Part shown: in pieces, positions 1,867 to 52,588 of the stretch
Layout: each line of letters begins with the position of its first letter
Numbering within the stretch: position 1 is the first letter of the stretch
Source of the DNA: an uncultured Actinomycetota bacterium
GTDB taxonomy: Bacteria > Actinomycetota > Humimicrobiia > Humimicrobiales > Humimicrobiaceae
Assembly (NCBI GenBank): GCA_964563645.1
Contig: CAZLXJ010000055.1
Location: 6,920-70,919, forward strand
DNA: 64,000 bases
Reading direction: 5' to 3'
Notes under the pieces: generated by a model
What the model was told of the DNA's origin: nothing
Databases searched by the model: none
Seen by the model: only the letters and a program-made list of their open reading frames with translations
Program-made: the position numbers and the translations under genes

Positions 1867-2113
1867 CTTATACCGCCTTTAATATTCGATATTATTTTTA
1901 TTAAATCAAGAATAAATTTTTTTTGCAATCAACTTAATAATGTATGAAAATTGATAAAGATACTTTAAAATTTAGTTATTAATAAAGAATAACATGTTTA
2001 CCATTCTTACAAAATTAAGCTCATATATGGTAATATTAGTATAATATTTTTTATTGGTATACCTTTACTATTTAATAAATTAAAAATATCAATGTAGAAA
2101 AGATTTGGTTGAT

Positions 2114-2629
2114 ATGAAGAAAGCTCTAATAATTATAGATATGCTTAACGATTTTGTGGAGGATGGAGCACCTCTTAAAGTCCCGGGAGTTGAAAAGATT
2201 ATAGAACCTATAAAAAAAGAAATAGATAAAGCAAGAAAGGGTAATTATCCGGTGATTTATCTATGCGACTGTCATGATGCAGACGACAGGGAATTCAAGC
2301 TATTTCCCACGCATGCAGTTAAGGGGACAAGGGGGGCAAGCATAATAGATGAGCTGAGACCGCAGGGTACCGATCTGCTGGTGAGAAAAAGTTCTTTTTC
2401 TGGTTTTTTTAAAACAGAGCTGGACGAAATTTTAAAAAAATTTTCGGTAGAAAAGATTGTTGTTACAGGCACAGCAACAAATATTTGTGTTCTATACACT
2501 GCAGCGGATGCAGTAATGAGAGGATATGAGGTAGATATAGTAAAGAATGCAGTGATAGGATTGAATAAAAAAGACCATAGGTTTGCACTGAAACAGATGC
2601 AGCATGTTCTCAAGGCAAATATAGTGTAA
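2114..2629 (+). CDS. pncA: Nicotinamidase / isochorismatase-family cysteine hydrolase
   Basis: ALIIIDMLNDF (Asp), DCHDADDREF..FPTHAVKGTRGA metal-site-like segment, GTATNICV (Cys). Lies immediately upstream of the NAPRTase gene. ATG at 2114 preferred over the TTG at 2105. Confidence 0.75.
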   Translation: MKKALIIIDMLNDFVEDGAPLKVPGVEKIIEPIKKEIDKARKGNYPVIYLCDCHDADDREFKLFPTHAVKGTRGASIIDELRPQGTDLLVRKSSFSGFFKTELDEILKKFSVEKIVVTGTATNICVLYTAADAVMRGYEVDIVKNAVIGLNKKDHRFALKQMQHVLKANIV

Positions 2630-2647
2630 AGGATTTACGGAGAAAGT

Positions 2648-3817
2648 ATGTTTCATATAGCCGGGGAAGATGATATCAGGAAGGGAAAAATTACTGATAT
2701 ATATTTTAAGAGGACTGAAGAGATACTCAAATCCAAAAAAATAAATCCTTATGTAAAAGCGGAGATTATGTTAAAGAGTTTTCCGTCCAATTACAACTGG
2801 GGTATCTTTGCTGGAGTTGAGGAGACCCTGAAGCTTCTCTCTGCTTTAGACAGTATATCGGTTAAATGCATGCCCGAAGGCAGCTATTTCGGGGAGTTTG
2901 AACCTGTTATGGTTATAGAGGGGAAATATCTTGATTTCGGGGTTTACGAGACAGCTATTCTGGGATTTTTGTGTCAGGCAAGCGGAATAGCAACAAGTGC
3001 TTCCAGATGTAAGATGTGTGCAGGCCAGAAACAGATATTCAGTTTCGGGGCAAGAAGGATGCATCCTTCAATTGCCCCAATGGTAGATAGGAATGCTTTT
3101 ATTGGGGGAGTTGACGGTGTATCAACTATCCCGGGAGCAGAACTGATCGGGGAAGAGCCTGTCGGTACAATACCACATGCATTGATTCTTATAATGGGTG
3201 ATACGTTAGAAGCAACACGCGCATTTCATGAAGTCATTAAGCCAGAAGTAGCCAGGATATCTCTTATTGATACATTCAATGATGAGAAATTTGAAGCTAT
3301 AAACGTAAGCCAGGCTATGGGGGATAAATTATTTGGAATAAGGCTGGATACGCCTTCCTCGAGAAGGGGAAGTTTTAAAAGAATACTGGAAGAGACCAGA
3401 TGGGAGCTTGATATCAGGGGCTTTAAAGATATAAAATTGATGGTAAGCGGAGGAATTTCGGAGAAAGATATAATAGAGCTGAAAGATATTGTGGATGCAT
3501 TCGGGGTTGGAACATCAATAAGCGCTGCCCCGATTATTGATTTTGCGCTTGATATCGTAGAGATAGAAGGAAAGCCGATAGCAAAGAGAGGAAAGAGATC
3601 GGGCGGTAAAAAAGTTCTTCGATGCAGTAAATGCGGAAAAGACATGGTAATTCCAGATACCGAAAAAACGGGCGATTATTCCTGCACTTCCTGCGGCGGC
3701 AAATATAATGAAGTCTTTATGGATGCAATTTGTTCGGGTAGATCAGTATACAATTATCCCGAAGCTGGAGTCATAAGGGAGAGGGTTATAAAAAGTTTCA
3801 GGTTTCTGGATTTATAG
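2648..3817 (+). CDS. pncB: Nicotinate phosphoribosyltransferase (archaeal-like short form) with C-terminal CxxC..CxxC ribbon
   Basis: 389-aa ORF with NAPRTase-like core (GARRMHP, GTIPHALI, IRLDTPSSRRG) and a GGAG RBS. Tail has CSKCGK..CTSCGG. Confidence 0.8.
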   Translation: MFHIAGEDDIRKGKITDIYFKRTEEILKSKKINPYVKAEIMLKSFPSNYNWGIFAGVEETLKLLSALDSISVKCMPEGSYFGEFEPVMVIEGKYLDFGVYETAILGFLCQASGIATSASRCKMCAGQKQIFSFGARRMHPSIAPMVDRNAFIGGVDGVSTIPGAELIGEEPVGTIPHALILIMGDTLEATRAFHEVIKPEVARISLIDTFNDEKFEAINVSQAMGDKLFGIRLDTPSSRRGSFKRILEETRWELDIRGFKDIKLMVSGGISEKDIIELKDIVDAFGVGTSISAAPIIDFALDIVEIEGKPIAKRGKRSGGKKVLRCSKCGKDMVIPDTEKTGDYSCTSCGGKYNEVFMDAICSGRSVYNYPEAGVIRERVIKSFRFLDL

Positions 3818-3861
3818 GCGGATATTTTTTTAAAAATATTTAAGGTTTTAAAGTTATAATT

Positions 3862-4953
3862 TCAGGTTATAATATTCCCGCTGTCCTTATCAAACAGATA
3901 AGTTTTTGTCCTGTCCATAGAGATATAAATCGTTGAGCCTGCCTTAACGCCTTCAATATTTTTTATAAATGATACTATATTCAGTTCAACAGGACCTATT
4001 TTGCAGACCATGTTCGCCCTGGGAGGAAAACTCTGGATAAGTTCTATGGTGGAATCAATTCTATCGGCTGCAGGTTCTTGAAAAAAGTCTATCTCTTCAG
4101 GCCTTATTCCCAGCAGCACCTCTTTCCCCTCAAGCCTTTTAAAAGAATTACCAATATACGCTGGAATATCAAGTCTTTTGCTATCAAATATAAAACCGCC
4201 CTTATTGATATTTCCGCTTATGAAATTCATTCCAAGGATGCCAAAAAAATCAGCAACAAATGTATTTTTTGGATTGAAATACATATCAAATGGTCTGTCC
4301 ACCTGTAAAAATCTTTTATTTTCAAGGACAGCAAGCCTGTCTGCCAGAGCAAGCGCTTCGTTACTGTCTGACGTAATATATACAGTTGTTGATTTTATAT
4401 CTGCTACCAGCCTTTTAAGATATGTACAGGTATTCATCCTAATTTTAGCATCAAGATTGGAAAGAGGTTCATCAAGGAGGAAAGCATTAGGGTTATCTCT
4501 TATTATTGCTCTCCCTGTAGCTACCCTTTGTTTGTGGCCTGCTGATAATTGCCGGGGAAAGAAATCAAGATATTTATCCACTCTAATATCTATCTGCTTA
4601 ACAGTACTGCCAACTTTTTTTGCCAGATTTTCCCTGGAATAATTTTTTACCCTCAGGGGGAAGGATATATTTTCCCTCGCAACCATATTTGGGTACAGGG
4701 CATAATCCTGAAATACCATTGCTATATTTCTTTCAGAAGGACTCTGTGCGGTTATATTCTTTCCGTTAAAAAATACATTTCCCTCAAAATCATTATCAAG
4801 GCCGGCGATAATTCTGAGCAATGTCGTCTTACCGCTTCCCGAAGGGCCTGTTATACAGAAGAATTCCCTGTCTTTGATATCAAGTGAAATATTTTCCAGT
4901 ATCGTAGTGGCACCAAAACGTTTTGTAATGTTGCGAAGCGATATATCTGCCAT
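3862..4953 (-). CDS. ABC transporter ATP-binding protein, MalK/UgpC/MsmX-like, orphan (no permease or binding protein nearby)
   Basis: Walker A GPSGSGKTT, Q-loop MVFQDYALYP, Walker B FLLDEPLSNLD, C-terminal MalK-like regulatory domain. The signature (LSAGH) and H-loop (TSDS) are degenerate. Confidence 0.85.
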   Translation of the reverse strand: MADISLRNITKRFGATTILENISLDIKDREFFCITGPSGSGKTTLLRIIAGLDNDFEGNVFFNGKNITAQSPSERNIAMVFQDYALYPNMVARENISFPLRVKNYSRENLAKKVGSTVKQIDIRVDKYLDFFPRQLSAGHKQRVATGRAIIRDNPNAFLLDEPLSNLDAKIRMNTCTYLKRLVADIKSTTVYITSDSNEALALADRLAVLENKRFLQVDRPFDMYFNPKNTFVADFFGILGMNFISGNINKGGFIFDSKRLDIPAYIGNSFKRLEGKEVLLGIRPEEIDFFQEPAADRIDSTIELIQSFPPRANMVCKIGPVELNIVSFIKNIEGVKAGSTIYISMDRTKTYLFDKDSGNIIT

Positions 4954-5246
4954 TTTAATGCACCTCCGAGTGCATCTAGCATTTATTTAATTATAGCATA
5001 AGCAGGTAAATATATTAAAAGAATCTATTCTGAAGAATGTTATTATTTTTTCATAAATATTCTTATAACTATATTTATTATCACGGTAATCACGATAAAA
5101 AATCAAATATTGGTAATTTTTAAAGCCCTAAAGTAAGATTTATTTACAGTTCCAGTACCGAGGGACATATAAGTATTTAATATCGGTCAAAATATGGCAG
5201 TACAATAAGACAGACTTATTGGTCTTTCTAAATATCTTCTTAGAAA

Positions 5247-5885
5247 TCAGTCATAGTCTTCATCCGTTGTCTTATATTCTTTCGGCTCATCAGGCAAGGG
5301 TGTCTCCTCCTCTTCTCCTATTTGTTTGACTGCTTTCTTTTCCGGTCCGGATGTAAAATCCAGGACAGTTATATTGGTTTTTAATACTTTAAGCCCCAGG
5401 TTTTGGGCGGCGAACCTGTTAACTTCATTTATAACTTCCTGCATTTTTTGGGAGACGTTAATACCTTTTTTGAGCTTTGCGTAAACATTTATAAGCGTCC
5501 CATCAGATTTTGGAAAAGCCCGGACCTTTAGATTGCTAATATCTTCCAAACCTGAAAGATTTTCCGCAATACGTGCCGAAACACTTTTTAATGTAATGCT
5601 GGCCTTTCCGTCCTTTACCGAAGCTATGTTTGTTACTCTTATCTTTCTCCTGTAAAATTCAAGAAATAATAAAGCTATGCTTATTATTATGATTAAAAGA
5701 AAGACAAGCCCGCATAAATATATATTTACAGAATCCTTGAATGCGAGTATTCTGTCAAATATATCTGACCACTGGAAAAGGTCGGTAAAGATATTCACTA
5801 TAATAACTACAGATGAAATGATAATAAAAAACAGGATAATGATAACGATTATTCTATTGAATATGTTCAATTTATTGACCTCCAT
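5247..5885 (-). CDS. Asp23-family membrane protein (AmaP-like alkaline shock membrane anchor)
   Basis: Two N-terminal TM helices followed by an Asp23-like C-terminal pattern (..INVYAKLKKGINVSQ..NLGLKV..NITVLDF), then an acidic tail. Confidence 0.45.
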   Translation of the reverse strand: MEVNKLNIFNRIIVIIILFFIIISSVVIIVNIFTDLFQWSDIFDRILAFKDSVNIYLCGLVFLLIIIISIALLFLEFYRRKIRVTNIASVKDGKASITLKSVSARIAENLSGLEDISNLKVRAFPKSDGTLINVYAKLKKGINVSQKMQEVINEVNRFAAQNLGLKVLKTNITVLDFTSGPEKKAVKQIGEEEETPLPDEPKEYKTTDEDYD

Positions 5886-6013
5886 TGCATCTTATTGCTG
5901 ATAATTTTATGATACAAAAGTTTCAAAATATTTGCCATCAATAATTATAATTTCATTTTTTTTTATAAGTGTTAGAATATTGCCCTGTAATAATGTTGAT
6001 GAAGGGATAAAGA

Positions 6014-6538
6014 TTGGATAATGTACTGCTATGGTCGCTCATTATTTTTATTGCTAGAATTGTGGATGTGAGTCTCGGAACCATCAGAGTAAATATGATA
6101 GTCAGGAGAAAAAAGATCCTGGCTGCTATTATAGGGTTTTTTGAAGTCGCAATATTCATATCGATAATAGTAAGAATAATAAATGAAGTTGATAATATAT
6201 TTGGAATATTATCCTATGCGGCTGGTTTTGCTGTCGGCACTGTTATTGGAATAATGATCTCAGAGAAATTATCAAGGGACCTGATAAGCACAAACATAAT
6301 TTCGAAGAATCACAGCGATGATATTAAGGAAGTCCTTAAGGAACAGGGATACGGGATTACCTGTTATGCAGGAAAGGGGATAGAAGGGGAAGTCGAGATA
6401 ATAAATGTTGTATGCAGCCAGTCAAATATGAAATTGATGCATAAGCTGGTATATGGAATAGATCCCGGAGCCTTTATAGCAAGTTATATGCTGGATAAGA
6501 TAAGAGGCGGGTTTATCAGGGGTTTGAAGAAAAAATGA
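6014..6538 (+). CDS. UPF0316 family membrane protein with DUF2179 C-terminal domain
   Basis: N-terminal IARIVDVSLGTIRVNMIVRRKKILAAIIGFFEV pattern typical of UPF0316, with a soluble C-terminal domain. TTG start. Confidence 0.7.
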   Translation: MDNVLLWSLIIFIARIVDVSLGTIRVNMIVRRKKILAAIIGFFEVAIFISIIVRIINEVDNIFGILSYAAGFAVGTVIGIMISEKLSRDLISTNIISKNHSDDIKEVLKEQGYGITCYAGKGIEGEVEIINVVCSQSNMKLMHKLVYGIDPGAFIASYMLDKIRGGFIRGLKKK

Positions 6539-6561
6539 TAAATACTCCGGGGAAAAGTGCA

Positions 6562-8094
6562 ATGGAAAAAAAAATTGGTTTTGATAATGAAAAATATTTG
6601 AAGGAACAAACTTCAGCAATACTTGGAAGGGTAGAGAAGTTCGATAATAAGCTTTTTTTGGAATTTGGCGGAAAGCTTTGTTTTGATTATCATGCAGCAA
6701 GGGTCCTACCGGGTTATGATCCGAATGTAAAAATAAGTCTTCTGCAATCCTTAAGGGATAAGATAGATATAATACTGTGTATCTATGCCGGTGATATAGA
6801 AAGCGGAAGGGTCAGGGGAGACTTTGGTATAACTTATGATACTGCTACTTTAAAATTAATTGACGACCTCAGGAATTGGGGGCTTGATATACTTTCTGTA
6901 GTGATTACGCGTTACTCGGGCCAACCGTCTTCAATAGTTTTTAAAAATAAGCTGGAAAGACGGGGGGTCAGGGTTTATCTTCATTATCCTATTGAAGGTT
7001 ATCCTGCCGAAATTGACACGATCTGCAGCCGGGAAGGTTTTGGAAAGAATGATTATATTAAAACAAAAAACCAGATAATAGTGGTAACAGCGCCCGGCCC
7101 AAATAGTGGAAAATTATCAACGTGTCTTTCACAGTTATATCATGACCATAAAAGTGGGATAAATTCAGGATATGCAAAATTCGAAACATTTCCAATATGG
7201 AATCTTCCGCTGGATCATCCTGTAAATATTGCTTATGAAGCGGCAACTGCCGACCTGAATGATTTCAATCTGGTAGACCCATTTCATCTGAAAGAATACA
7301 ACAAGATTGCAGTTAATTACAACCGGGATGTGGAAAGTTTTCCCATACTGAAACAGGTTATCAGCAGAATAATTAAAAATAACGATAATAATCAGCAGGT
7401 AACGTATAATTCTCCGACAGATATGTGTGTCAACAGAGTAAGTTATGGTATAACTGACGATGATATTGTGAGAGAGGCATCCAGGCATGAATTGATAAGA
7501 AGATATTTCAGGTATAGGACGGAGTATCTTCAGGGAGTTGAAAAAAAGGAAACAGTGGACAGAGTAAAACTTTTAATGGAAAGATTAAATGTCAGTATAG
7601 AAAATAGAAGGGTAGTGGCAATTGCAAGGAAGGAAGCAGCTGAAGCAGAGAAAAAAGGCAAGGGGAATAAAGGTATATTTTGCGGAGCAGCCCTGCAGCT
7701 TATGGATGAAAGGATTATTACGGGAAAGAATTCAAAACTGTTACATGCTGCATCAAGCCTTATTCTTAATGCCATAAAAACTCTGGCGAATATACCTGAT
7801 GAAATACACCTGCTTCCGCCCGGTGTAATATTGCAGATATCAAAATTAAAGAAAGGTATCTACAGGGAAGAATCTGAAAGCCTGGACCTGGAGGAAACAC
7901 TTATAGCTCTGTCAATAAGCACCACGGTAAATCCTTCTGCAGAACTTGCCATGAAAAAGCTTAAATTATTGAGGGACTGTGAAATGCATATGACGCATAT
8001 ACCGACACCCGGTGATGAGGTTGCACTAAACCGACTGGGCATAAATCTTACGACTGATGGTAGATTTTCTTCCAGAAATCTTTTTATTGCGTGA
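6562..8094 (+). CDS. UPF0371 / DUF1846 family protein (function unknown)
   Basis: Strong family pattern: GFDNEKYLKEQ, LEFGGKL.FDYHAARVLPGYDPN, VVTAPGPNSGKLSTCLSQLYHD, YAKFETFPIWNLPLDHPVNIAYEAATADL. An alternative ATG at 6535 overlaps the upstream stop (ATGA). Confidence 0.85.
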   Translation: MEKKIGFDNEKYLKEQTSAILGRVEKFDNKLFLEFGGKLCFDYHAARVLPGYDPNVKISLLQSLRDKIDIILCIYAGDIESGRVRGDFGITYDTATLKLIDDLRNWGLDILSVVITRYSGQPSSIVFKNKLERRGVRVYLHYPIEGYPAEIDTICSREGFGKNDYIKTKNQIIVVTAPGPNSGKLSTCLSQLYHDHKSGINSGYAKFETFPIWNLPLDHPVNIAYEAATADLNDFNLVDPFHLKEYNKIAVNYNRDVESFPILKQVISRIIKNNDNNQQVTYNSPTDMCVNRVSYGITDDDIVREASRHELIRRYFRYRTEYLQGVEKKETVDRVKLLMERLNVSIENRRVVAIARKEAAEAEKKGKGNKGIFCGAALQLMDERIITGKNSKLLHAASSLILNAIKTLANIPDEIHLLPPGVILQISKLKKGIYREESESLDLEETLIALSISTTVNPSAELAMKKLKLLRDCEMHMTHIPTPGDEVALNRLGINLTTDGRFSSRNLFIA

Positions 8095-8404
8095 TGATAT
8101 TCTGATTTTATTTAACTGGATGTTATATATTTTTAAGTTAAAAAAATAAGAATAACCGGGCAAACTTTTAGAAGATAAAAAGGCTTTTTTAACCCGAGCT
8201 TTTTAATTTTGAGATTTTAATGGTGAAATAATCTAGATAATATCATATAAAGTATAAATATATATATTGTAACTACTACATATATATTATTGTTAATTTT
8301 TATTAAATATTATATTATTATTAGTATAATATTTATTAATTTCACCAAAAATCTGGATATAAATATAAAAATATTAATAGATTCATAATATACCGGTAGA
8401 AAAT

Positions 8405-9907
8405 ATGAACGGGACAGGAAAAAAACAGATCATACTGGAAATCGAAAAATTAAAAAAAGTTATAGATGATATAAAATATTCTGAAGGCAGGTATGAGATT
8501 TTAAAAAAATCGCTGGATGCAAGTGAGATAAAATACAATTCACTTTTAGATTCTATTCCCTCCGGGATAATAGAGATGGACCGTAATGGGATAATAGTTA
8601 ATATAAATAAGAGCGCACTACGGATATTAGACTGCAAAAAAGAAGAAATAATAAAAAAACATTTTGGATCTGTAAATGCCATTAGTAAAAATAATCTTCC
8701 ACAATATTTCAGATTATTTGATTATGAAGCAAACAGCAAAGAAAAATCTGGTGATGAAATAGTATTTGAAGACAGGAATGGGAATAAAATGTTTATTGAG
8801 GCAAGATCCAGCCTTATTAAAAATGGTGTCAAAGTTACAGGTATTCATATCATAATAGAAAACATAACCGAAAGTAAAAAGATCGAAAATGAACTGAAAT
8901 ATCTCAAATTTCATGACCAGCTTACCGGCCTTTTTAACAGATATTATATTGATGAAGAAATAAAACGCCTGGATGCAGAAAGGCATTTGCCTGTTGGATT
9001 TATAATAAGTGACGTAAATGGATTAAAACTGATAAATGATGCTTTTGGCAATGATGAGGGTGACAGACTATTGCAGAATATTGCAGGTGTTTTCAGAAAA
9101 GCATGCCGTAAGGAAGATATAATAGCCAGATATGGTGAAGATGAATTCGCAGTAATCTTACATGATACTGACAGGGAATCATTATCGGATATAAATGAGA
9201 AAATACTGAAATTGTGCGGATATATAAAAAAGGAGAAATTTGATTTTACGATATCAACCGGAATAGCCGCTAAAGAGAATGCAGTCGCTACTTTTAGTGA
9301 TGTTATTACTGAAGCAAGGGACATGATGTATAAAAATAAACTCGTATGCGGAAAGAGCATGCAGGGAAATGCAGTTATATCAATGGTGGATTCGCTTCTT
9401 GGAGAAGGGTACGAGACAAGGGAACATGTAAAAAGGGTTGAAAAGATGTCAAAGGATTTTGGGACTTTTCTAAAGCTGCCAAAAAGCAAAATAGATGAAT
9501 TATCAATACTTGCAAGCCTCCATGATCTTGGAAAAGTTGCAATCCCGGATAAAATACTAAAGGAAAAAGAAAAATTATCAAAAGAAGACTGGGATATAAT
9601 AAAATCATTTCCTGAAATAGGTTATGATATTGCAAAATCTTCATTTAAGTTTTCTCATATAGCAGATTATATACTATGCCATCATGAAAGGTGGGATGGG
9701 AGTGGATATCCCGGAGGAATAAAAGGCAATGAAATACCTCTACTTTCAAGGATATTGTCTATTATAGATTCATATGATGTTATGAGAAGCGGTAGATTCT
9801 ACAAAAAACCCTTAAGCAAGTCTGAAGCGATAAGAGAACTTAGAAAGTGCAGCGGTAAACAGTTTGATCCGGTGCTCCTGGAGCAATTTATCAGTCTTAT
9901 TGAATAA
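8405..9907 (+). CDS. PAS - degenerate GGDEF - HD-GYP signalling protein (c-di-GMP phosphodiesterase type)
   Basis: PAS region (SIPSGIIEMDRNGIIVNINKSA), GGDEF domain with GEDEF in place of GGDEF and RKED at I-site spacing. HD-GYP motifs are HDLGK and HHERWDGSGYPGG. Confidence 0.85.
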   Translation: MNGTGKKQIILEIEKLKKVIDDIKYSEGRYEILKKSLDASEIKYNSLLDSIPSGIIEMDRNGIIVNINKSALRILDCKKEEIIKKHFGSVNAISKNNLPQYFRLFDYEANSKEKSGDEIVFEDRNGNKMFIEARSSLIKNGVKVTGIHIIIENITESKKIENELKYLKFHDQLTGLFNRYYIDEEIKRLDAERHLPVGFIISDVNGLKLINDAFGNDEGDRLLQNIAGVFRKACRKEDIIARYGEDEFAVILHDTDRESLSDINEKILKLCGYIKKEKFDFTISTGIAAKENAVATFSDVITEARDMMYKNKLVCGKSMQGNAVISMVDSLLGEGYETREHVKRVEKMSKDFGTFLKLPKSKIDELSILASLHDLGKVAIPDKILKEKEKLSKEDWDIIKSFPEIGYDIAKSSFKFSHIADYILCHHERWDGSGYPGGIKGNEIPLLSRILSIIDSYDVMRSGRFYKKPLSKSEAIRELRKCSGKQFDPVLLEQFISLIE

Positions 9908-9918
9908 AGGTCCGGTAA

Positions 9919-10746
9919 TCATATATATATTTCCGGTCTTCTCTGTTTTAAAAGGGGTAATTCTTTTCTTATACGCGAAACTTTGCAGGGATCTATTATT
10001 CCGGATATTATCGATTCATCTTCTCCTGCTTCAGAAAAAATTTGACCCCATGGATCTACCATGAGGGAATGCCCATAAACAATGTAATCAGATGAAGCAT
10101 CCCTGGCAGGAGACGCACAAACAAAATATACCTGATTGTCAAGGGCCCTGGCCCTGGCTGTAATATGCCAGTGGGCAGGGCCTGTAGTCATGTTAAAAGC
10201 TGCGGGAGCTATAATTAACAGGGCACCCTCAAGAGCCATTTTTCTTATCAGTTCCGGAAAGCGCATATCGTAACAGATAGCTATTCCGATTCTGCAAAAA
10301 ACAGTGTTAAAAACAGTAATGTCATTGCCTGGAGATATATATTTTGATTCCTTAAAGCTTATACCATCTTTTATATTAACGTCAAAAAGGTGAATTTTCC
10401 TGTGCCTGGCAATCAATCTTCCCTCAGGATTAAAAGTATAGGAAGTGTTAAACATCTTTCCATTTTCAGATTCAGGTATTGAACCGCCAACAATAAATGT
10501 TTCCAGATCAAGTGCAAGTCCGGATAAAAAACTCGCTGTTTCACCAGGGAATTTTTCTGCTGTTTTTTGAAAATATTTATGGTTATACGGACAATTAAAC
10601 ATCTCCGGAAGGACTATGATATCAGAATTATATTTTTTTTTGGCCTGTCTTATGAATTTTTCTGCTTTTATCAGGTTATGCTTTTTATCTTTTTCTACAA
10701 GCGTCTGGCAGACAGCCAGTCTAAAGGTTTTATTTTGAGAATTCAT
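9919..10746 (-). CDS. Carbon-nitrogen hydrolase (nitrilase superfamily, omega-amidase-like)
   Basis: Glu-Lys-Cys triad contexts: VLPEMFN, HRKIHLFD, GIAICYDMRFPE. Confidence 0.8.
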   Translation of the reverse strand: MNSQNKTFRLAVCQTLVEKDKKHNLIKAEKFIRQAKKKYNSDIIVLPEMFNCPYNHKYFQKTAEKFPGETASFLSGLALDLETFIVGGSIPESENGKMFNTSYTFNPEGRLIARHRKIHLFDVNIKDGISFKESKYISPGNDITVFNTVFCRIGIAICYDMRFPELIRKMALEGALLIIAPAAFNMTTGPAHWHITARARALDNQVYFVCASPARDASSDYIVYGHSLMVDPWGQIFSEAGEDESIISGIIDPCKVSRIRKELPLLKQRRPEIYI

Positions 10747-45444: not shown

Positions 45445-45915
45445 ATGTCAAAACCCAGAAAAAAAAGAAATGTACTGTATCCGCCCAGAATGGATTACTT
45501 TGCACCCCATGGCTGCAGGCCGTTAAAGAAGATCAATGAAGTTATACTGACAATTGATGAATATGAATCAATAAGACTGGCTGATCATGAAAACCTGAAG
45601 CAGGAAGATGCTGCCAAAAAGATGAATATATCCAGACCAACTTTTACAAGGCTTGTAGATGCTGCAAGGAAAAAAATTGCAGATGCAATGGTTAACGGAA
45701 AGGTAATCAGAATAGAGGGCGGAAACTATATTTTTTTAAGGAACAGAATGAGGTGCGTGGCATGCGGCAATATATGGGATACTGTCATCAGCAACAATGA
45801 TGAATTCTGTCCGTCCTGCAACAGTGAAAATATTGAGGATCTGGGAAGAAGATTCGGAAGAGGGAGGGCTCGCGGGCGCGGTTCCGGAAGAAAACAGGGA
45901 GGGCCGGCCAGATAA
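45445..45915 (+). CDS. DUF134 (UPF0251) predicted DNA-binding protein, copy 1, with zinc ribbon and RG-rich tail
   Basis: LTIDEYESIRLADHENLKQEDAAKKMNISRPTFTRLVDAARKKIADAMVNGKVIRIEGG, CVACG..CPSC, then GRRFGRGRARGRGSGRKQGG. Confidence 0.8.
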   Translation: MSKPRKKRNVLYPPRMDYFAPHGCRPLKKINEVILTIDEYESIRLADHENLKQEDAAKKMNISRPTFTRLVDAARKKIADAMVNGKVIRIEGGNYIFLRNRMRCVACGNIWDTVISNNDEFCPSCNSENIEDLGRRFGRGRARGRGSGRKQGGPAR

Positions 45916-46012
45916 AGGTCTTTTCTCTGGTTAAAGATCTGTTTATCAAATAGTTCTTTATTGATTAATTATGGGCATATACTCAAAATATGTTATAATG
46001 TGTTAAAAAATC

Positions 46013-46861
46013 ATGAATATGAAAAACAATAAAATAAAGCTCACAATAATAATTGATAATTATGTAAGGTCCTCGGGATTAAAGGCAGAACACGGCTGGT
46101 CCATGATGATAGAAAACGGAAAGGAAAAGATACTATTTGATACCGGAGCGAGCGATCTTGTATTACATAATCTGAGATACCTTGGTTTTGAACCGCAGAT
46201 AATTGATAAAATTTTCATAAGCCATGGACATTATGATCATACAGGCGGACTGTATGATATTACAAAACTGGCAGAAAAAGAGGTAGAAATTTTTGCGCAT
46301 GAAAATATATTTGAAAAAAAATACAAGCTGACAAAACAATTAAAGAAAAAATATATAGGCATACCTTACAACAGGGAAAAATATATTGAAAATGATGTAA
46401 AGTTCAGACTTGAGAGAGGCTCAATAAGGATTTCTGAAAATATATATTCAACGGGAGAGATCGAAAAAACAGTATCATTTGAAAAACCAGAAATAAATAT
46501 GATTAAGAAAAAGAACGGCATATATATAAATGACAGCCTTATAGATGATACCGGTATAATAATTGAAACTTCAAGAGGAGCGGTACTTATTACAGGATGT
46601 GCTCATAGAGGAATAATAAATATAATAAAACAGGCGCAGAGATTATCGGGGAAAGACTCATTTTTTGCCGTAATAGGAGGTTTCCACCTCTTTAATAAAG
46701 ATAAAAAGTATATTGGCAAAGTTATTTCCGAATTAAGAAAAATAAAGATTGATAAAATTATACCATCTCACTGTACAGGCTATAATGGATATTTTGAAAT
46801 AAAGAAGGAGTTTGGTACAAAATGCGAGTTCGGATATACCGGTAAAAAGATTATTCTATAA
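46013..46861 (+). CDS. MBL-fold metallo-hydrolase (COG1237-like)
   Basis: LTIIIDN..GLKAEHGWS..LFDTG..ISHGHYDHTGG..GCAHRG..PSHCTG. Confidence 0.8.
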   Translation: MNMKNNKIKLTIIIDNYVRSSGLKAEHGWSMMIENGKEKILFDTGASDLVLHNLRYLGFEPQIIDKIFISHGHYDHTGGLYDITKLAEKEVEIFAHENIFEKKYKLTKQLKKKYIGIPYNREKYIENDVKFRLERGSIRISENIYSTGEIEKTVSFEKPEINMIKKKNGIYINDSLIDDTGIIIETSRGAVLITGCAHRGIINIIKQAQRLSGKDSFFAVIGGFHLFNKDKKYIGKVISELRKIKIDKIIPSHCTGYNGYFEIKKEFGTKCEFGYTGKKIIL

Positions 46862-46892
46862 ATAAAATTATAACTCTGAAGAAAGGCGGAAC

Positions 46893-47276
46893 TTGAAAAT
46901 AGCAATACCAGTTGAAAGCGGCAGGGTGGCAGAACATTTTGGCAGGTGCCCAAAGTTTATTGTTGTAGATATATCAGATGGAAAAATTAAAAGCAGGGAA
47001 AACATTGACAACCCCGGACATAGCCCCGGCTTGCTTCCTGATTATTTTAACAGTATGAATATAGGTACTGTTGTCGCCGGCGGAATGGGTATGAGGGCAA
47101 AAGAATTATTTCAGAATAAAAAAATTAATGTAATGCTGGGAATAAAAGGGAAGATAGATGATGTGATAGCAGACCTTTTAAATAATACCCTGAATGCTGG
47201 TGAGAGTCCCTGCATACCGGGTTCAGGAAAGGGTTATGGGCTGGAAAAAAATGAGTGTGACCATGAAAGAGAATAA
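46893..47276 (+). CDS. NifX/NifB-family (dinitrogenase FeMo-cofactor-binding domain) small protein, copy 1
   Basis: MKIAIPVESGRVAEHFGRCPKFIVVD..VVAGGMGMRA. TTG start. Confidence 0.8.
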   Translation: MKIAIPVESGRVAEHFGRCPKFIVVDISDGKIKSRENIDNPGHSPGLLPDYFNSMNIGTVVAGGMGMRAKELFQNKKINVMLGIKGKIDDVIADLLNNTLNAGESPCIPGSGKGYGLEKNECDHERE

Positions 47277-47297
47277 CTAAAGGAAAGGGAGGCCAAT

Positions 47298-47735
47298 ATG
47301 AGTGCAAGGCCATTTATAGATAAAATCGTAACGACAGTGCCTCTGTATGTTTATTATAAACCCCATGGCATACCTCTTGAAAAGCTGAAAGAGGAGACAC
47401 TTAACCTTGAAGAGATTGAAGCTTTGAACCTTAAAGACAGCCAGGACCTCGACCAGAAAAGCGCAGCTGAAAATATGGGAATATCCAGATCTACTTTTCA
47501 AAGGCTTTTAAAATCTGCAAGGAAAAAAATAATAAATTCCATCATAGAGGGGAAAGCAATAAAGTTTGAAGGTGGAAATTACATCAAAGGTAAAGAAATA
47601 AAGAGGACAAAATGTCTGAAAGGCATTTATCATTACAGGATAAGGAGTAATGATATAGGTGAAAAAGAGCAGAAATATAAAATAAGTAAAATAAGATGTC
47701 CTGAATGCGGTAAAAGATTAATCGATTTTATTTAA
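47298..47735 (+). CDS. DUF134 (UPF0251) predicted DNA-binding protein, copy 2, with C-terminal zinc ribbon
   Basis: LNLEEIEALNLKDSQDLDQKSAAENMGISRSTFQRLLKSARKKIINSIIEGKAIKFEGG. CPECGK near the C-terminus. Confidence 0.8.
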   Translation: MSARPFIDKIVTTVPLYVYYKPHGIPLEKLKEETLNLEEIEALNLKDSQDLDQKSAAENMGISRSTFQRLLKSARKKIINSIIEGKAIKFEGGNYIKGKEIKRTKCLKGIYHYRIRSNDIGEKEQKYKISKIRCPECGKRLIDFI

Positions 47736-47766
47736 TGATATTTATACGACAGTATAAGGGGGGAGA

Positions 47767-48159
47767 ATGATAGTAGCAATAACTTCAAGCGGTAAAACAC
47801 CGGAATCTTCAGTAGATCCCAGATTCGGAAGGTGTCCATACTATATATTATATGATACTGATAAGGAGACTTTTGAAGCAATAGATAATTCGGGCCAGAG
47901 TGCTTATGGCGGTGCCGGGGTACAGGCTGCACAGGCTGTATCAGACATGAATGCAGATGTACTCATAACAGCCAATATAGGGCCGAATGCCTTCCGTGTT
48001 CTTGATTCAGCAGGGATAAAGGTATATTCCGGGGTATCGGGTACCGTAGAAAAGGCAATAGATGATTTTAAAAATGGTTCACTGAAACCGGTCTCTTCAC
48101 CAAATGTGGGGCATAAGCACGGAATAGGGCCCGGTACCGGAAATGGAGGCCAAAGATAA
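47767..48159 (+). CDS. NifX/NifB-family small protein, copy 2
   Basis: VDPRFGRCPYYILYD..VLITANIGPNAFRVL..GIKVY. Confidence 0.8.
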   Translation: MIVAITSSGKTPESSVDPRFGRCPYYILYDTDKETFEAIDNSGQSAYGGAGVQAAQAVSDMNADVLITANIGPNAFRVLDSAGIKVYSGVSGTVEKAIDDFKNGSLKPVSSPNVGHKHGIGPGTGNGGQR

Positions 48160-48997
48160 ATTGAAGATTTCCATAGCAAGCGGGAAAGGCGGAACGGGAA
48201 AGACTTCTGTAGCGGTAAGTATAGCCAGGTCAATTGGATATTGCCAGTTTTTTGATTATGATGTCGAAGCGCCGAATGCAAGTTTTTTCCTGAAACCTGA
48301 TATAGAAAATGTAGAAAAAGTTACAATGAGGCAGCCCTATTTTCTATCCGGTACCGGTGCTGATTTTAGCAAATGTGTGGATTTCTGCCGTTTTAACGCT
48401 ATTGCATATGTAAAAGGGAAGGTTGTATTTTTCCCCGAACTGTGCCACGGGTGCGGCGGTTGTATGCTGGTAGGCCCGCCTGGCGCCGTAAAAGAAAAAG
48501 ACGTTGAGGTAGGAAAAGTTATGAGGGGAAAGGCAAGTCCGGGAATTGATTTTATAATGGGGGATCTCAACCCGGGAAGCCTCCGTACAGTAACCGTGCA
48601 GGCGAAACTTGATGAATATATTGATGAAAGCCGGACAGTAATAATGGACTGTCCTCCAGGGACATCATGCCCCATGGTTGCAGCTGTAAAAAACAGTGAT
48701 TTCTGCATCCTCGTTACTGAGCCCACACCCTTTGGCCTGAATGACTTGGAAATATCCGTAGAAGTTTTAAAAAAACTGGGAATACCTCATGGAGTTATAA
48801 TAAACCGCGATGGGATTGGTGATGATTCGGTCGAGAAGTTCTGTAATAAAAAAAGCATAAAGATTCTTGAAAAAATACCCAATGACATAAATATTGCAAA
48901 AGCATATTCGGAGGGCATAACCATACCTGAATATAATAAGGAATGGATAAAAAGGTTTATGGCAGTGGTAGACCTGATAGAAAAGGAAAATAAATGA
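48143..48997 (+). CDS. MinD/ParA-type P-loop ATPase with degenerate ferredoxin insert
   Basis: Deviant Walker A SGKGGTGKTS. The insert retains only CVDFC and CHGCGGC. Overlaps the upstream and downstream genes. Confidence 0.8.
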   Translation: MEAKDKLKISIASGKGGTGKTSVAVSIARSIGYCQFFDYDVEAPNASFFLKPDIENVEKVTMRQPYFLSGTGADFSKCVDFCRFNAIAYVKGKVVFFPELCHGCGGCMLVGPPGAVKEKDVEVGKVMRGKASPGIDFIMGDLNPGSLRTVTVQAKLDEYIDESRTVIMDCPPGTSCPMVAAVKNSDFCILVTEPTPFGLNDLEISVEVLKKLGIPHGVIINRDGIGDDSVEKFCNKKSIKILEKIPNDINIAKAYSEGITIPEYNKEWIKRFMAVVDLIEKENK

Positions 48998-49863
48998 AAC
49001 AGATTGCTATAATAAGTGGAAAAGGCGGTACCGGAAAGACAACAATAACTTCAAGTTTCATAAAACTTGCAGGAGACCAGGTATCAGTGGATTGTGATGT
49101 AGATGCCGCAAATCTACATATAATGCTCTCACCGGTAATCAAAGAAAGCAATGATTTCATCGGCGGCGAAGTAGCGAAGGTAACAGGGGAATGCATACAG
49201 TGCGGTCAATGTGAGCAGGCCTGCAGATTTATGGCTATAAGTGATTCTGAGACAGACATAAAAATAGATCCGGTCAAATGTGAAGGTTGCGGGGTTTGTG
49301 AAGAAATATGCCCCGTAGACGCAATAGAGCTATTTTCTGAAAAACAGGGAACCTATTATATATCCGAGACTAAATACGGCCCGATGGTTCATGCCAGGCT
49401 GGATCCAGGAGCAGAAAACTCGGGGCTTATAGTATCAAGGATAAGGGAGATTGCTGAAGATATTGCAATAAAGAATAATAAGAAGGCAATATTAATAGAC
49501 GGTGCTCCCGGTATTGGATGTCCTGTTATTTCTTCATTAAATGGAGTGGACTATTCACTTATAGTAACCGAGCCGACACTTTCGGGAATTAGTGATTTTA
49601 AAAAAGCACATGAATTAACAAAATTTTTTAATGTAGAAACTTTTGTATGCATTAATAAATCAGATCTTAATGAGAAAAACAGCCGTATCATAGCTGATTA
49701 CTGCAGTGATAACGGCCTTACACTTCTTGGGGAGATACCTTATGATGAAATGGTCCCTGCAGCACTATCCAGAAAGAAATTTATAATAGATAATCCAGAA
49801 AGTCCTGCTGCAAAGAAGATTATTGAGTTCTGGGACAAGTTAAAGAAGATACTTTTTTCTTAA
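48994..49863 (+). CDS. MinD/ParA-type P-loop ATPase with intact 2x[4Fe-4S] ferredoxin insert
   Basis: SGKGGTGKTT. CIQCGQCEQAC and CEGCGVCEEICP motifs. ATGA overlap with the preceding ATPase gene. Confidence 0.8.
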   Translation: MKQIAIISGKGGTGKTTITSSFIKLAGDQVSVDCDVDAANLHIMLSPVIKESNDFIGGEVAKVTGECIQCGQCEQACRFMAISDSETDIKIDPVKCEGCGVCEEICPVDAIELFSEKQGTYYISETKYGPMVHARLDPGAENSGLIVSRIREIAEDIAIKNNKKAILIDGAPGIGCPVISSLNGVDYSLIVTEPTLSGISDFKKAHELTKFFNVETFVCINKSDLNEKNSRIIADYCSDNGLTLLGEIPYDEMVPAALSRKKFIIDNPESPAAKKIIEFWDKLKKILFS

Positions 49864-50039
49864 AATATAGAAATCCTGGAATAAAATTTTAATTTACTCC
49901 TTAATGTTATTGTAAATTTTATCTGAATTTATTTACATTAAAAATATTTTTTTCAAACATGTTAAAAAAGTAATATGCTCTTTTTACCAATAAAGAGACT
50001 ATTTAGTATATTAAAAAATTAAACCAGGGAGGCCGGATA

Positions 50040-51605
50040 ATGACAGGGCCAATAGCAGGAGATCCCTTATCCGGGATGGAAGGCCATCTTAGCATAGAGG
50101 TGGATGTTGAAAGTGGAGTAGTATCGGATGTACGGAGTTCAGCTGAAATATTTAAAGGCTGGAATATTGTATTGAAGGAAAGAAATCCTCTGGATGCACC
50201 CGTAACTGTTCAGAGGATATGCGGAACCTGTCCCCAGTCCCACGGTTATGCTTCAGCAATATGCCTGGATGATGCTCTTGGGACAAAACCTCCTTCAAAT
50301 GGCAGGATAATCAGGAATCTCATACTTGGCTCAAATTTTATACAATCCCATATTTTTAATTTTTATCATCTTTCAATGCTGGATTATGTGGACATAAAAG
50401 CAGTACTTAAATACAGGGGTTCAGATTCCAGACTGATAAAAATAAGAGACCGGATTAAACATTATATTGATTCGGGAGAATATTATACAAGATCATCATT
50501 AATTTCAGTATGTAAAGGTGACTATATAGAAGATTATGAAATGAATATCAAATCAATAGACAATTATTTAAAGGCTCTTGAAATAAGAAGAAAATCAAAT
50601 GAAATACTCTGTATATGGGGCGGTAAGATGCCTTATATACAGACATTTTCTCCCGGACGTGTGTACGTAAAACCTGATATTGGAAATATTAAAGCTTTCA
50701 AAGCAGGTCTGGCCGATATTCAGGCTTTTATAAATAATATTTATATTCCGGATATTATCGATATTGTAAGAATATTTCCTGAGTGGCTAAAAATAGGAAA
50801 AGGTAATGGAAATTTCTCTTCCTGCGGAGGTTTTCCGATGGATGACGGCAATAGTAAATATTTATTTGATTCCGGTGAATATATTGAAGGAGAAATGAGA
50901 GATTTTAATCCCGAAGCTGTTACGGGTGATGCCAGATATTTAAAATATCCTGCAGCCCCGGATATTCATTTACTTAAAGAAAATAATGTATATGATACAA
51001 ATAAAAATAATGACAGTTTACGGATAAAAGCACAGGGATATAAGGAAAAAGCTTCAGAAACCGGTCCACTGGCAAGAATTATTATTTCATATATGCAAAA
51101 AAGCCCCGGAAGTGAAATAAAAAGTCTGGTGGATAGTATTCTGGAAGTACATGGTGCCGGGAAAGAAATACTTGACTCAACAATGGGGAGACATATAACC
51201 CGTGCACTTGAATGCAAAATTATAGCAGATAATATGCAGAAATGGGTAGATGAGCTCATTGAAGGGAAATCAGTATACAATGAGTCTATAAAAATACCGG
51301 TAGAATCAGAAGGTAAGGCATTAGCAGAAGTACCCAGGGGTTCTCTTGGACACTGGATGACTATTAAAAATAAAAAAATAGACAGTTACCAGGTATTTTC
51401 ACCTTCAGCAAGGACCATGAGCTCCAGAGACGATAATAAGGATATGAGCACCTTTGAACAGGCATTACTGGGAACACCTATGCGGGACCCTGAAAATCCA
51501 ATTGAAGCAGTCAGGGTAGTAAGATCATTTGACCCCTGTATTTCATGTATTATAAAAACTATTGATAAAGGTAAAGAAATATCAAAATTTAAAATTAAAA
51601 TATGA
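50040..51605 (+). CDS. [NiFe]-hydrogenase large-subunit homolog (no adjacent small subunit)
   Basis: GMEGHL, RICGTCPQSH, SHIFNFYHL, EVPRGSLGHW, SFDPCISC. GGGAGG RBS. Confidence 0.85.
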   Translation: MTGPIAGDPLSGMEGHLSIEVDVESGVVSDVRSSAEIFKGWNIVLKERNPLDAPVTVQRICGTCPQSHGYASAICLDDALGTKPPSNGRIIRNLILGSNFIQSHIFNFYHLSMLDYVDIKAVLKYRGSDSRLIKIRDRIKHYIDSGEYYTRSSLISVCKGDYIEDYEMNIKSIDNYLKALEIRRKSNEILCIWGGKMPYIQTFSPGRVYVKPDIGNIKAFKAGLADIQAFINNIYIPDIIDIVRIFPEWLKIGKGNGNFSSCGGFPMDDGNSKYLFDSGEYIEGEMRDFNPEAVTGDARYLKYPAAPDIHLLKENNVYDTNKNNDSLRIKAQGYKEKASETGPLARIIISYMQKSPGSEIKSLVDSILEVHGAGKEILDSTMGRHITRALECKIIADNMQKWVDELIEGKSVYNESIKIPVESEGKALAEVPRGSLGHWMTIKNKKIDSYQVFSPSARTMSSRDDNKDMSTFEQALLGTPMRDPENPIEAVRVVRSFDPCISCIIKTIDKGKEISKFKIKI

Positions 51606-51671
51606 AAGATAAGAAAGAATAGGAAATAATGGTACAGGTACCTGTTTTTAAATTAATAGTGAATTTATGAA

Positions 51672-52013
51672 ATGCACGAATATTCCATAACATCTTCAAT
51701 AATTAATATCCTTGAGGATATTGTAAAAAAAAATAATTTGAGCAGTGTAAAAAAAGTAAAGTTTGAATTAAGTCCGATTTCAAATATTGAACCCGAATCA
51801 ATAAGATTCTATTATGATTTCTTAACTAAAGATAACAGCAGATTAAAAGGGGCAAAGCTTATGTTTAGTGTTATAGATTTTAAACTGGAATGCAGAAAAT
51901 GCGGAAAACTTTTTAGATCAAAAGAGCTTTTACCTGTATGTCCTGCATGCGGCAGCCGCATGATAAAAGTAAGAGAATCGGATGACATAAGGATAATTTC
52001 AGTGGAAGCCTGA
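51672..52013 (+). CDS. hypA: Hydrogenase nickel-insertion protein HypA
   Basis: MHE N-terminus, CRKCGK..CPACGS zinc site, 113 aa. Confidence 0.85.
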   Translation: MHEYSITSSIINILEDIVKKNNLSSVKKVKFELSPISNIEPESIRFYYDFLTKDNSRLKGAKLMFSVIDFKLECRKCGKLFRSKELLPVCPACGSRMIKVRESDDIRIISVEA

Positions 52014-52588
52014 TTTAATTACAGGGCCGGATAAAAAGATCCATGCCGGCAGCATAACAGACTCATATTTTGAATGAGTGCAGTGTAACCCGTCGTATTT
52101 ATAACCAGAATGGGAATCTCAGGGAGATAATGGATATGGAGTTTTCTATGGAGTATATGAGATATCCCATAAGAGAAAAATAGACATTTGTAAGGCTGCT
52201 GCGACATACCTGGATTTGGCAGGATGGAAGAAACCGGCAATATTAAGGGGCATCCATCCCAAAGACAAGTTTTTTTATTGACTTAAGTAGAATTTATAAG
52301 ATAAAATAAATAATATATTTAAATATAAGAATTACCAGATTTATAATTATCTGCACATTTTTTAGGGTTATTAGCAATAAATTGCTATTGTATAAGTAAT
52401 ATTATAGATTTTATATATTAATAAAAATATTGCTAATGATATTTTTAAAGAAGATGAAAGGATTTTTTTTAAAAATAGTATAAATTTTATTATAGCTTAG
52501 TTTAAAAACATTACTCATATAATAATTAGAGTAAAAGTAGTATTAATAAAAGTTAGTATTTATAAAAAAATTTGTGTAAATATATTAT

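Follow-up and report, generated by a model that had tools for sequence, protein, structure and literature searches.

Do the seven genes that precede a lone [NiFe]-hydrogenase large subunit gene in an uncultured actinomycetotal genome serve this hydrogenase, or do they form a system of their own? This question is raised by a 64-kb stretch of contig CAZLXJ010000055.1 (assembly GCA_964563645.1, positions 6,920–70,919 of the forward strand; hereafter called the window), which revealed a GC content of about 36%. According to our analysis, the seven genes probably constitute a local ORP ('orange protein') system of strict anaerobes, independent of the hydrogenase, in an uncultivated low-GC lineage of Actinomycetota near Candidatus Humimicrobiia. 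The core of this system would consist of two MinD/Mrp-like ATPases with ferredoxin-type Fe-S inserts, acting as a nucleotide-gated heterodimer, and of two different NifX-family proteins, one of the orange-protein/IssA type and one of the MrpORP Di-Nase type, which would hold labile metal-sulfur clusters. Most likely, the system would use ATP to hold Fe-S (or related metal-sulfide) clusters and to pass them on in a strongly reducing environment. For the two DUF134 proteins, regulation through DNA binding is the most likely function; either Zn or an Fe-S cluster could be bound by their Cys ribbons, and they may act at a conserved promoter upstream of the gene for a metallo-beta-lactamase (MBL) hydrolase, the latter being a frequent accessory gene. 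The features concerned, with E values of their Pfam matches, are:

45445–45915, plus strand: DUF134_1, 156 amino acids (PF02001, 1.4e-28)
45971–45999, plus strand: conserved promoter block, TGGGCA, 16 nt, and TATAAT with upstream TG
46013–46861, plus strand: MBL hydrolase, 282 amino acids (Lactamase_B PF00753, 4.9e-13)
46893–47276, plus strand: NifX_1, 127 amino acids, TTG start (Nitro_FeMo-Co PF02579, 1.4e-18)
47298–47735, plus strand: DUF134_2, 145 amino acids (PF02001, 3.2e-22; Sigma70_r4_2, 7e-5)
47767–48159, plus strand: NifX_2, 130 amino acids (PF02579, 2.2e-26)
48143–48997, plus strand: ATPase 1, 284 amino acids (CbiA and ParA matches, weak Fer4)
48994–49863, plus strand: ATPase 2, 289 amino acids (Fer4, 2.2e-12; CbiA, 7.8e-12)
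50040–51605, plus strand: [NiFe]-hydrogenase large subunit, outside the ORP module (NiFeSe_Hases PF00374, 1.5e-113)
51672–52013, plus strand: hypA, outside the ORP module (PF01155, 1.1e-26)

An earlier inspection of the DNA without database searches (the sequence-only reading) had described the locus as seven co-directional genes, and this was borne out by the positions of the open reading frames (ORFs) on the plus strand. The intergenic gaps through the cluster amount to 97, 31, 21, and 31 nt, NifX_2 runs 17 nt into the reading frame of ATPase 1, and the reported ATGA overlap of the ATPase 1 stop and the ATPase 2 start can be read directly in the sequence at 48994–48997. Profile-HMM searches against Pfam and NCBIfam confirmed every family that had been named (E values of 1e-11 to 1e-113), and all quoted motifs were found, namely HFGRCP, RFGRCP, two copies of GKGGTGKT, CxxC..CxxC and the RG-rich tail in DUF134_1, and CPECG in DUF134_2. 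The description of the module as duplicated did not hold, since the members of the pairs are old paralogs with identities of 40% (DUF134), 28% (NifX), and 26% (ATPases). A recent tandem duplication of a DUF134 and NifX module was rejected on the same grounds, namely the identity of only 28–40% and the match of the two NifX copies to different ORP components.

The ORP cluster of Desulfovibrio vulgaris was reportedly described by Fievet et al. in J Bacteriol in 2011. Its complex comprises the MinD-like proteins Orp3 and Orp4 with two [4Fe-4S] motifs each, Orp5, the orange protein Orp8, and Orp9/MrpORP; Orp4 and Orp8 were purified together with Orp3, MrpORP is able to supply apo Orp3-Orp4-Orp8 with Fe-S clusters, and the Di-Nase domain of MrpORP binds [3Fe-4S] (PMC6345978). 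In the window, NifX_2 matched the structures of TM1290 (1rdu, 1.4e-20), MTH1175 (1eo1, 2.8e-20), and the orange protein of Desulfovibrio gigas (2wfb, 3.3e-18), by which it is classified as a putative metal-sulfur cluster binding protein of the orange-protein/IssA-clade (MTH1175, TM1290) type. As in other members of the IssA/MTH1175/TM1290 clade of the NifX-NifB-NafY superfamily (IPR003731), its single small domain is followed by a Gly-rich C-terminal tail; with about 20 residues, this tail falls far short of the cationic one of Pyrococcus furiosus IssA, which has 70. IssA is a store of Fe and S in the form of thioferrate and also restores the [4Fe-4S] cluster in ferredoxin (PMC5524996); the cluster bound by the D. 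gigas orange protein is [S2MoS2CuS2MoS2]3- (PMC6345978).

NifX_1 matched best, within NCBIfam, to the C-terminal Di-Nase part of MrpORP (NF041136, model positions 265–365) with 98 bits, far below the cutoff of 450 and without the defining CxxC P-loop domain, and its relatives in the PDB are PH0822 and TM1816. It represents a stand-alone Di-Nase domain with a Cys-containing C-terminal tail. In other loci, the NifX_1 type is either fused to an MrpORP-type P-loop (L010, L012, L065, L072) or stands beside a separately encoded one (L022, L030, L032, L036, L037; 364–398 bits, NF041136 positions 1–256). Since NifX_2 and NifX_1 match different components of ORP, they are not recent duplicates. With NifX_2 resembling the D. 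gigas orange protein, NifX_1 the Di-Nase domain of MrpORP, and the ATPases being of the Orp3/Orp4 type, the designation as an ORP-like cluster could be upheld.

Compared to Desulfovibrio, the window, likewise from an anaerobe, shares two adjacent MinD-type ATPases with ferredoxin inserts like those of Orp3/Orp4 (ATPase 1 only partly), an orange-protein-type NifX of the Orp8 type (2wfb, see above), an Orp9-type Di-Nase domain, and possibly small DUF134 proteins. However, the genes form one co-directional string instead of two divergent operons, the Di-Nase domain stands alone without the Mrp/NBP35 P-loop, an MBL hydrolase gene is inserted, and ATPase 1 has a degenerate ferredoxin insert. No OrpR-like sigma54 activator was found within 10 kb on either side of the cluster, and a conserved sigma-70-type promoter is present in its place; OrpR is restricted to deltaproteobacteria (PMC8359166). 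The presence of two DUF134 genes appears as a trait of the window lineage, with two instances among 160 other loci.

The pair of ATPases had been read as both carrying ferredoxin inserts. This applies to ATPase 2, which combines a deviant Walker A motif with two full CxxCxxCxxxC motifs and thereby a complete 2x[4Fe-4S] ferredoxin insert, but in ATPase 1 the insert is degenerate, displaying CxxxC and CxxCxxC with five Cys and no complete CxxCxxCxxxC. Among the relatives, two full motifs were present in 72 of 77 proteins of the ATP_1 type and in 80 of 82 of the ATP_2 type. The degenerate insert of ATPase 1 is shared by only two census loci, and its extra-Cys motif DCPPGTSCP was likewise counted in only two. 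ATPase 2 has at least 8000 relatives at E<=1e-10, and its AlphaFold model (pLDDT 88.9) found MinD, FleN, and FlhG as nearest folds, followed by Soj/ParA, BchL, NifH, and CooC (Foldseek probability 1.0), though no ferredoxin insert in a P-loop fold was detected among the solved structures searched. With NifH, BchL, CooC, Nbp35/ApbC, MinD, FleN, and FlhG, the two ATPases share GKGGxGK[ST] and the fold; they differ by the ferredoxin insert and are not members of any of these families by score. Both carry a Cys seven residues past the Walker-B Asp (DGAPGIGC and DCPPGTSC), the same spacing as between Asp125 and Cys132 of NifH, so that a cluster bridging the two ATPases at this position may be envisaged. 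A 620-aa protein from a metagenome-assembled genome (MAG) of Spirochaetaceae (L045, 9038–10897) joins an ATP_1-type half to an ATP_2-type half, following the order of the genes. In view of this fusion and of the ATGA coupling in the window, the most likely arrangement of ATPase 1 and ATPase 2 is a heterodimer gated by nucleotides.

How far this set of genes extends beyond the window was determined in a census around homologs of ATPase 2, covering 80 loci of species-representative genomes from many bacterial and archaeal phyla (L005–L084) and 80 metagenome loci (L091–L170), which were scored with the window proteins as queries. An adjacent ATP_1-type gene was present in 76 of the genome and 68 of the metagenome loci, one or more NifX-like genes in 70 and 60, and two or more in 54 and 43, respectively. 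DUF134 genes were less frequent (26/80 and 11/80), and two of them occurred in one locus of each set. The ORP-like cluster type is common and widespread in anaerobes. An MBL gene lay near the ATPase 2 homolog in 21/80 genome and 26/80 metagenome loci, and was co-directional with the ATPase pair at no more than 6 kb distance in 45/160, making it a recurrent accessory gene of this cluster type. In the window, the HGHYDH motif of the hydrolase is intact, and its PDB relatives 2p4z (4.9e-37) and TM1679/3h3e are both uncharacterised.

Further co-directional neighbours up to 6 kb away from the ATPase pair were counted in all 160 loci, clustered, and then identified via Pfam. Thus, we found FmdB-type Zn_ribbon_8 proteins (48/160), radical SAM enzymes of about 310 aa (46/160), ARMT1/DUF89 (27/160), FUR-family regulators (26/160), methyltransferases (25/160), CGGC-domain proteins (25/160), DUF4405 (18/160), Pyr_redox_2 (14/160), and sigma54 activators (6/160). 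FeoB and a DtxR/FeoA-type regulator adjoin the cluster in L002 and L003, and the orp genes Dde_3197 to Dde_3199 of Desulfovibrio alaskensis G20 co-vary with feoA and flavodoxin (PMC10533852). Taken together, the FUR, radical SAM, Zn_ribbon_8, CGGC, FeoB, and IssA parallels speak for the handling of Fe-S and metal sulfide rather than for a part in maturing hydrogenase or fixing nitrogen. A role in nitrogenase maturation was also rejected for the window itself, since the annotated 21.6 kb around the cluster contain no nif genes, the sole radical-SAM gene there is miaB, and the nifB model TIGR01290 gave 0.0065. A deltaproteobacterial locus (L060) is arranged as in Desulfovibrio: a DUF134-NifX operon is divergent from a PAS-sigma54-HTH_8 activator, followed by NifX, NifX, ATPase, and ATPase. 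As a side observation, a TnpB/Cas12f1-like gene and a PIN/ribbon-helix-helix (RHH) pair lie a few kb upstream of the cluster in the Candidatus Humimicrobiaceae MAG L002 (2631–3608).

With regard to the hydrogenase, the sequence-only reading had suggested the large subunit and hypA as a possible client of the cluster. In the census, no more than 4 of 160 loci had hydrogenase genes in the vicinity of such clusters, and there was no recurrent linkage, an outcome which that reading itself had named as counting against the idea. In the 80 genome loci, a large subunit was found in one (L009, at the contig edge about 7 kb away), HypA in two plus one weak case, and a weak HycI-like protein in one. Small subunit and cytochrome b were found in none of them, and all five hydrogenase genes were absent from the 80 metagenome loci (queries: large subunit and HypA of the window, and small subunit, cytochrome b, and HycI of L088).

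The same separation became visible on a smaller scale. Where relatives of the ATPases and DUF134 proteins carry a name, they come from MAGs of Actinomycetota, Candidatus Humimicrobiaceae among them, and the genes flanking the locus are housekeeping genes, namely those for PBP1 and TyrRS upstream and for RNase Y, a HATPase protein, SpoVS, MiaB, and MiaA downstream. The closest relative, L001, is syntenic from argH to miaA with a DNA identity of 82–83% (ATPase 2: 92%), and contains 72 nt in place of the 2404 nt (49869–52271) that hold the large subunit gene and hypA in the window. Neither direct nor inverted repeats were found at the borders of this 2.4-kb difference, so that nothing points to a mobile element. 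Behind hypA, the part of this segment at 52014–52272 holds only a 73-codon minus-strand ORF (52019–52240). Comparison of the interval between tyrS and rny in relatives resulted in the following series of ORP-like and hydrogenase genes:

L088: all seven genes, then small subunit, large subunit, cytochrome b, HycI, and HypA (operon at 6390–10570)
Window (also L085 and L086): all seven genes, then large subunit and HypA only
L001: all seven genes, no hydrogenase genes
L005: related cluster followed by ARMT1, then HypA only, then a toxin-antitoxin pair
L171: DUF134_1 and DUF134_2 only, adjacent (644–1529), then the full operon (1817–6022)
L172: none of the seven, one small FmdB-like ORF, then the operon to the contig end (6142–9389)

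ORP genes, DUF134 pair, and hydrogenase operon are separable modules, each of which occurs without the other. In L171, the DUF134 pair at 644–1529 stands directly upstream of the intact hydrogenase operon, and the MBL, NifX, and ATPase genes are missing. The pair in L005, inserted between hypA and rny (6674–7245), was recognised by eye as an RHH antitoxin and a MazF/PemK-like toxin, marking the slot as a hotspot of gene turnover. Calculated against L001, all seven cluster genes are under purifying selection, with ratios of nonsynonymous to synonymous substitutions (dN/dS) of 0.04–0.21 (ATPase 1, 0.06; ATPase 2, 0.04; DUF134_1, 0.09; DUF134_2, 0.05; MBL gene, 0.11), in comparison to 0.09 for TyrRS and 0.04 for RNase Y. 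Since L001 is free of hydrogenase genes at this site, the cluster is kept regardless of a hydrogenase.

What, then, is the large subunit gene doing in this slot? In L088, the slot is occupied by a membrane-bound group-1-type [NiFe]-hydrogenase operon, and in L088, L171, and L172 the small subunit gene lies directly upstream of the large subunit gene. Searches of the 64 kb with the L088 proteins as queries (tblastn, E<1; phmmer, E<=1e-3) found no small subunit, cytochrome b, or HycI, in agreement with the description of the large subunit as a lone one. Along with HypA (54%), the large subunit (53%) is the least conserved protein of the region in comparison to L088, whereas ATPase 2, TyrRS, and RNase Y are 72%, 74%, and 84% identical. 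It differs at 44 of 157 columns that are invariant in 15 relatives, each of which shows 0–4 private changes, its identity to outgroups is 41–46% versus 52–64% for sister sequences, and its score of 490 bits with NF033181 lies below the cutoff of 600. While the N-terminal RICGTCPQSH is kept, the C-terminal DPCxxCxxH has become DPCISCIIK (H506K, the His being invariant in the 15 relatives), and the motifs PFLPR (153–157), SWxKxPRY (326–334), and VVPTTWN (454–460) are lost. The large subunit is a fast-evolving, decaying remnant of a small subunit-large subunit-cytochrome b-HycI-HypA operon. Some selection on it persists nevertheless, as shown by its open frame of 521 codons (the other five frames carry 15–57 stops), its Shine-Dalgarno sequence, and its four Ni-Fe cysteines C61, C64, C500, and C503. 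HypA, encoded at the same position as in L088, has retained its MHE N-terminus and the CxxC..CxxC zinc site, and also occurs without a large subunit in L005.

From the features that have been kept, one might alternatively propose that the large subunit has been repurposed as a stand-alone Ni-binding sensor, store, or scaffold and, separately, that the DUF134 pair represents new Cys-ribbon transcription factors coupling metal or redox state to both modules. Open frame, Shine-Dalgarno sequence, cysteines, and HypA have been preserved, and small subunit, cytochrome b, protease, and the His of the cleavage site have been shed; moreover, metagenome contigs from three independent samples encode a protein that is 100% identical to the large subunit, in an unchanged gene order (JGI 3300001335 ML8_10000553, JGI 3300077522, and Logan SRR2986055). 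We regard this proposal as unlikely; its second part leads to the DUF134 proteins and their possible target.

Both DUF134 proteins are clear members of their family (99.8 and 79.4 bits versus a cutoff of 27). The Cys4 ribbon of DUF134_1 is formed by C104, C107, C122, and C125, of which C107 is nearly and the others are completely invariant in 35 homologs. Most of these homologs also carry the cationic Arg/Gly tail, which the sequence-only reading had called unusual in bacteria. The combination of helix-turn-helix (HTH), C4 ribbon, and RG-rich tail recurs in loci of Dehalococcoidia, Ignavibacteria, Zixibacteria, Chloroflexota, and Methanosarcinales, so that the tail appears as a conserved trait of a DUF134 subfamily across phyla and not as a peculiarity of the window genome. 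The AF2 model of DUF134_1 (pLDDT 80.8) displays a three-helix core, a small sheet with the Cys4 ribbon, and a disordered tail (140–156). Foldseek gave no match for the whole protein at E<=0.001, and the HTH alone (40–50 residues) superposed at 0.5–0.9 Å with a probability of about 1.0 on sigma region 4, including the SigE/-35 DNA complex 2h27, and likewise on the operator-bound DNA-binding domain of DeoR (7bhy). By this modelled fold, DUF134_1 is a probable DNA-binding regulator; it is probably transcribed on its own. DUF134_2 lacks the RG-rich tail and displays a C-x34-CPECG tail instead. Its orthologs were found in L001, L002–5, L088, and L171, the subtype being specific to the lineage. Full-text searches of the literature gave no function for DUF134.

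The promoter block at 45971–45999 was the best promoter-like match of the region (10/12), and its spacer holds the inverted repeat CATAT-N7-ATATG, a candidate operator. Upstream of the MBL gene, this block is kept in L001 and L088, though the proteins are only 57–77% identical. The operator 22-mer occurs once in the window, was matched in 0 of 100 shuffles, and was found elsewhere in L001, L085, and L088 only. With a candidate HTH protein and a conserved promoter containing an inverted repeat, the self-regulation proposed by the sequence-only reading seems plausible. However, no copy of the candidate operator was detected ahead of the hydrogenase operons in L088, L171, and L172, so that control of both modules by DUF134 via one site is unsupported. 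A weak alignment of window positions 49880–49920 to the hydrogenase promoter block may be an AT-rich chance match and was not relied on. With regard to related architectures, DUF5320 proteins with a Gly/Arg-rich N-terminus followed by a Cys ribbon are encoded in the clusters of L002–L005 (e.g., L005, 2571–2789, and L002, 5519–6252), and an archaeal DUF134 protein (L075, 10839–11294) carries a DUF5320-like tail, linking two uncharacterised families.

Several points weigh against a local ORP system with DUF134 proteins as its regulators. Besides the degenerate ferredoxin insert of ATPase 1, the Mrp/NBP35 P-loop, which serves as loader of Orp3/Orp4 in Desulfovibrio, was not found in the 64 kb using both ATPases as phmmer queries (E<=1e-3); elsewhere, P-loops of the MrpORP type were picked up by these queries with 20–39 bits. 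L171 keeps both DUF134 genes without NifX and ATPase genes, so that DUF134 is not strictly tied to them. Orp5 and Orp7 of Desulfovibrio may be members of DUF134/COG1342, with indirect backing from the DUF134 gene that heads the divergent operon in L060. Orp5 is part of the physical ORP complex in Desulfovibrio, and a homolog binds [2Fe-2S] (PMC6345978); should Orp5 belong to DUF134, the DUF134 proteins may be subunits of the complex and not, or not only, regulators. Finally, as the sequence-only reading had stated, the function of ORP is still regarded as unresolved, its physiological role being called unclear even in Desulfovibrio (PMC8359166), and our literature search turned up no bacterial ORP papers after 2021.

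Apart from the hand-over of clusters, the genes might serve to store or detoxify inorganic metal sulfide, either as thioferrate in the manner of IssA or as thiomolybdate or thiotungstate-copper in the manner of the D. gigas orange protein with its Mo-Cu cluster, the Gly/Arg-rich cationic tails binding the anionic polymer. The grouping of NifX_2 with MTH1175, which is placed in the IssA clade, and the binding of thioferrate by the cationic Gly-rich tail of IssA (PMC5524996) are consistent with such a function, as are the Gly/Arg-rich cationic segments recurring in the DUF134_1 tails across phyla and in the DUF5320 proteins of L002–L005. In the window, however, the tail of NifX_2 is short, the RG-rich tail sits on an HTH protein, for which an additional DNA or RNA contact is the simpler explanation, and no transport genes for Mo, W, or Cu lie beside the cluster. 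As storage would moreover leave two redox-active ATPases unexplained, we consider this function improbable.

A different role would follow from the proposal made for D. vulgaris, namely that the ATPase pair acts as a MinD-like positioning or cell-division system that is redox-sensitive via its Fe-S inserts. Loss of orp expression in D. vulgaris led to morphological defects, MrpORP is polar, and Orp3/Orp4 possess a MinD-like C-terminal amphipathic helix (PMC6345978, PMC8359166). In the window, the closest folds are MinD, FleN, and FlhG, and the C-terminus of ATPase 2 (..KKIIEFWDKLKKILFS) reveals an I..xW pattern conserved across relatives. On the other hand, there are no MinC/MinE-like partner genes, the constant partners are NifX-family cluster carriers, and the recurrent neighbours are related to metals and Fe-S and not to division. 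The link to division in Desulfovibrio is indirect, with its authors calling the role unclear (PMC8359166), and a division system seems rather doubtful.

Least convincing of all is a dedicated assembly or transfer machine for the adjacent [NiFe] large subunit working together with HypA, which appears highly improbable and is already largely refuted by comparative genomics: a spacer of 177 nt separates ATPase 2 from the co-directional large subunit gene and hypA, with no predicted terminator in between (a scan gave 5 sites versus 5.1 expected, none of them between ATPase 2 and the large subunit), the full operon of L088 lies directly downstream of the same seven genes, and hypA follows the cluster in L005, but hydrogenase genes are rare near such clusters, L001 keeps all seven genes without any at the site, the operons of L172 and L171 occur without ORP/DUF134 and without NifX/ATPase genes, respectively, and a large subunit with neither small subunit nor protease that has lost 44 of 157 invariant positions is an unlikely target.

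The local ORP system favoured here belongs to one of the most widespread anaerobe-specific gene sets without a known physiological role, a problem which the window locus leaves unsolved. It extends ORP to an uncultivated actinomycetotal lineage that has neither OrpR nor the Mrp P-loop, suggesting that neither of them must be encoded together with the cluster. For the DUF134 proteins, regulation through DNA binding can now be tested on a defined candidate operator. The presence/absence series in a single slot removes a tempting but wrong link to hydrogenase maturation, and it illustrates that a 'lone' large subunit beside metallocluster genes can simply be operon debris.

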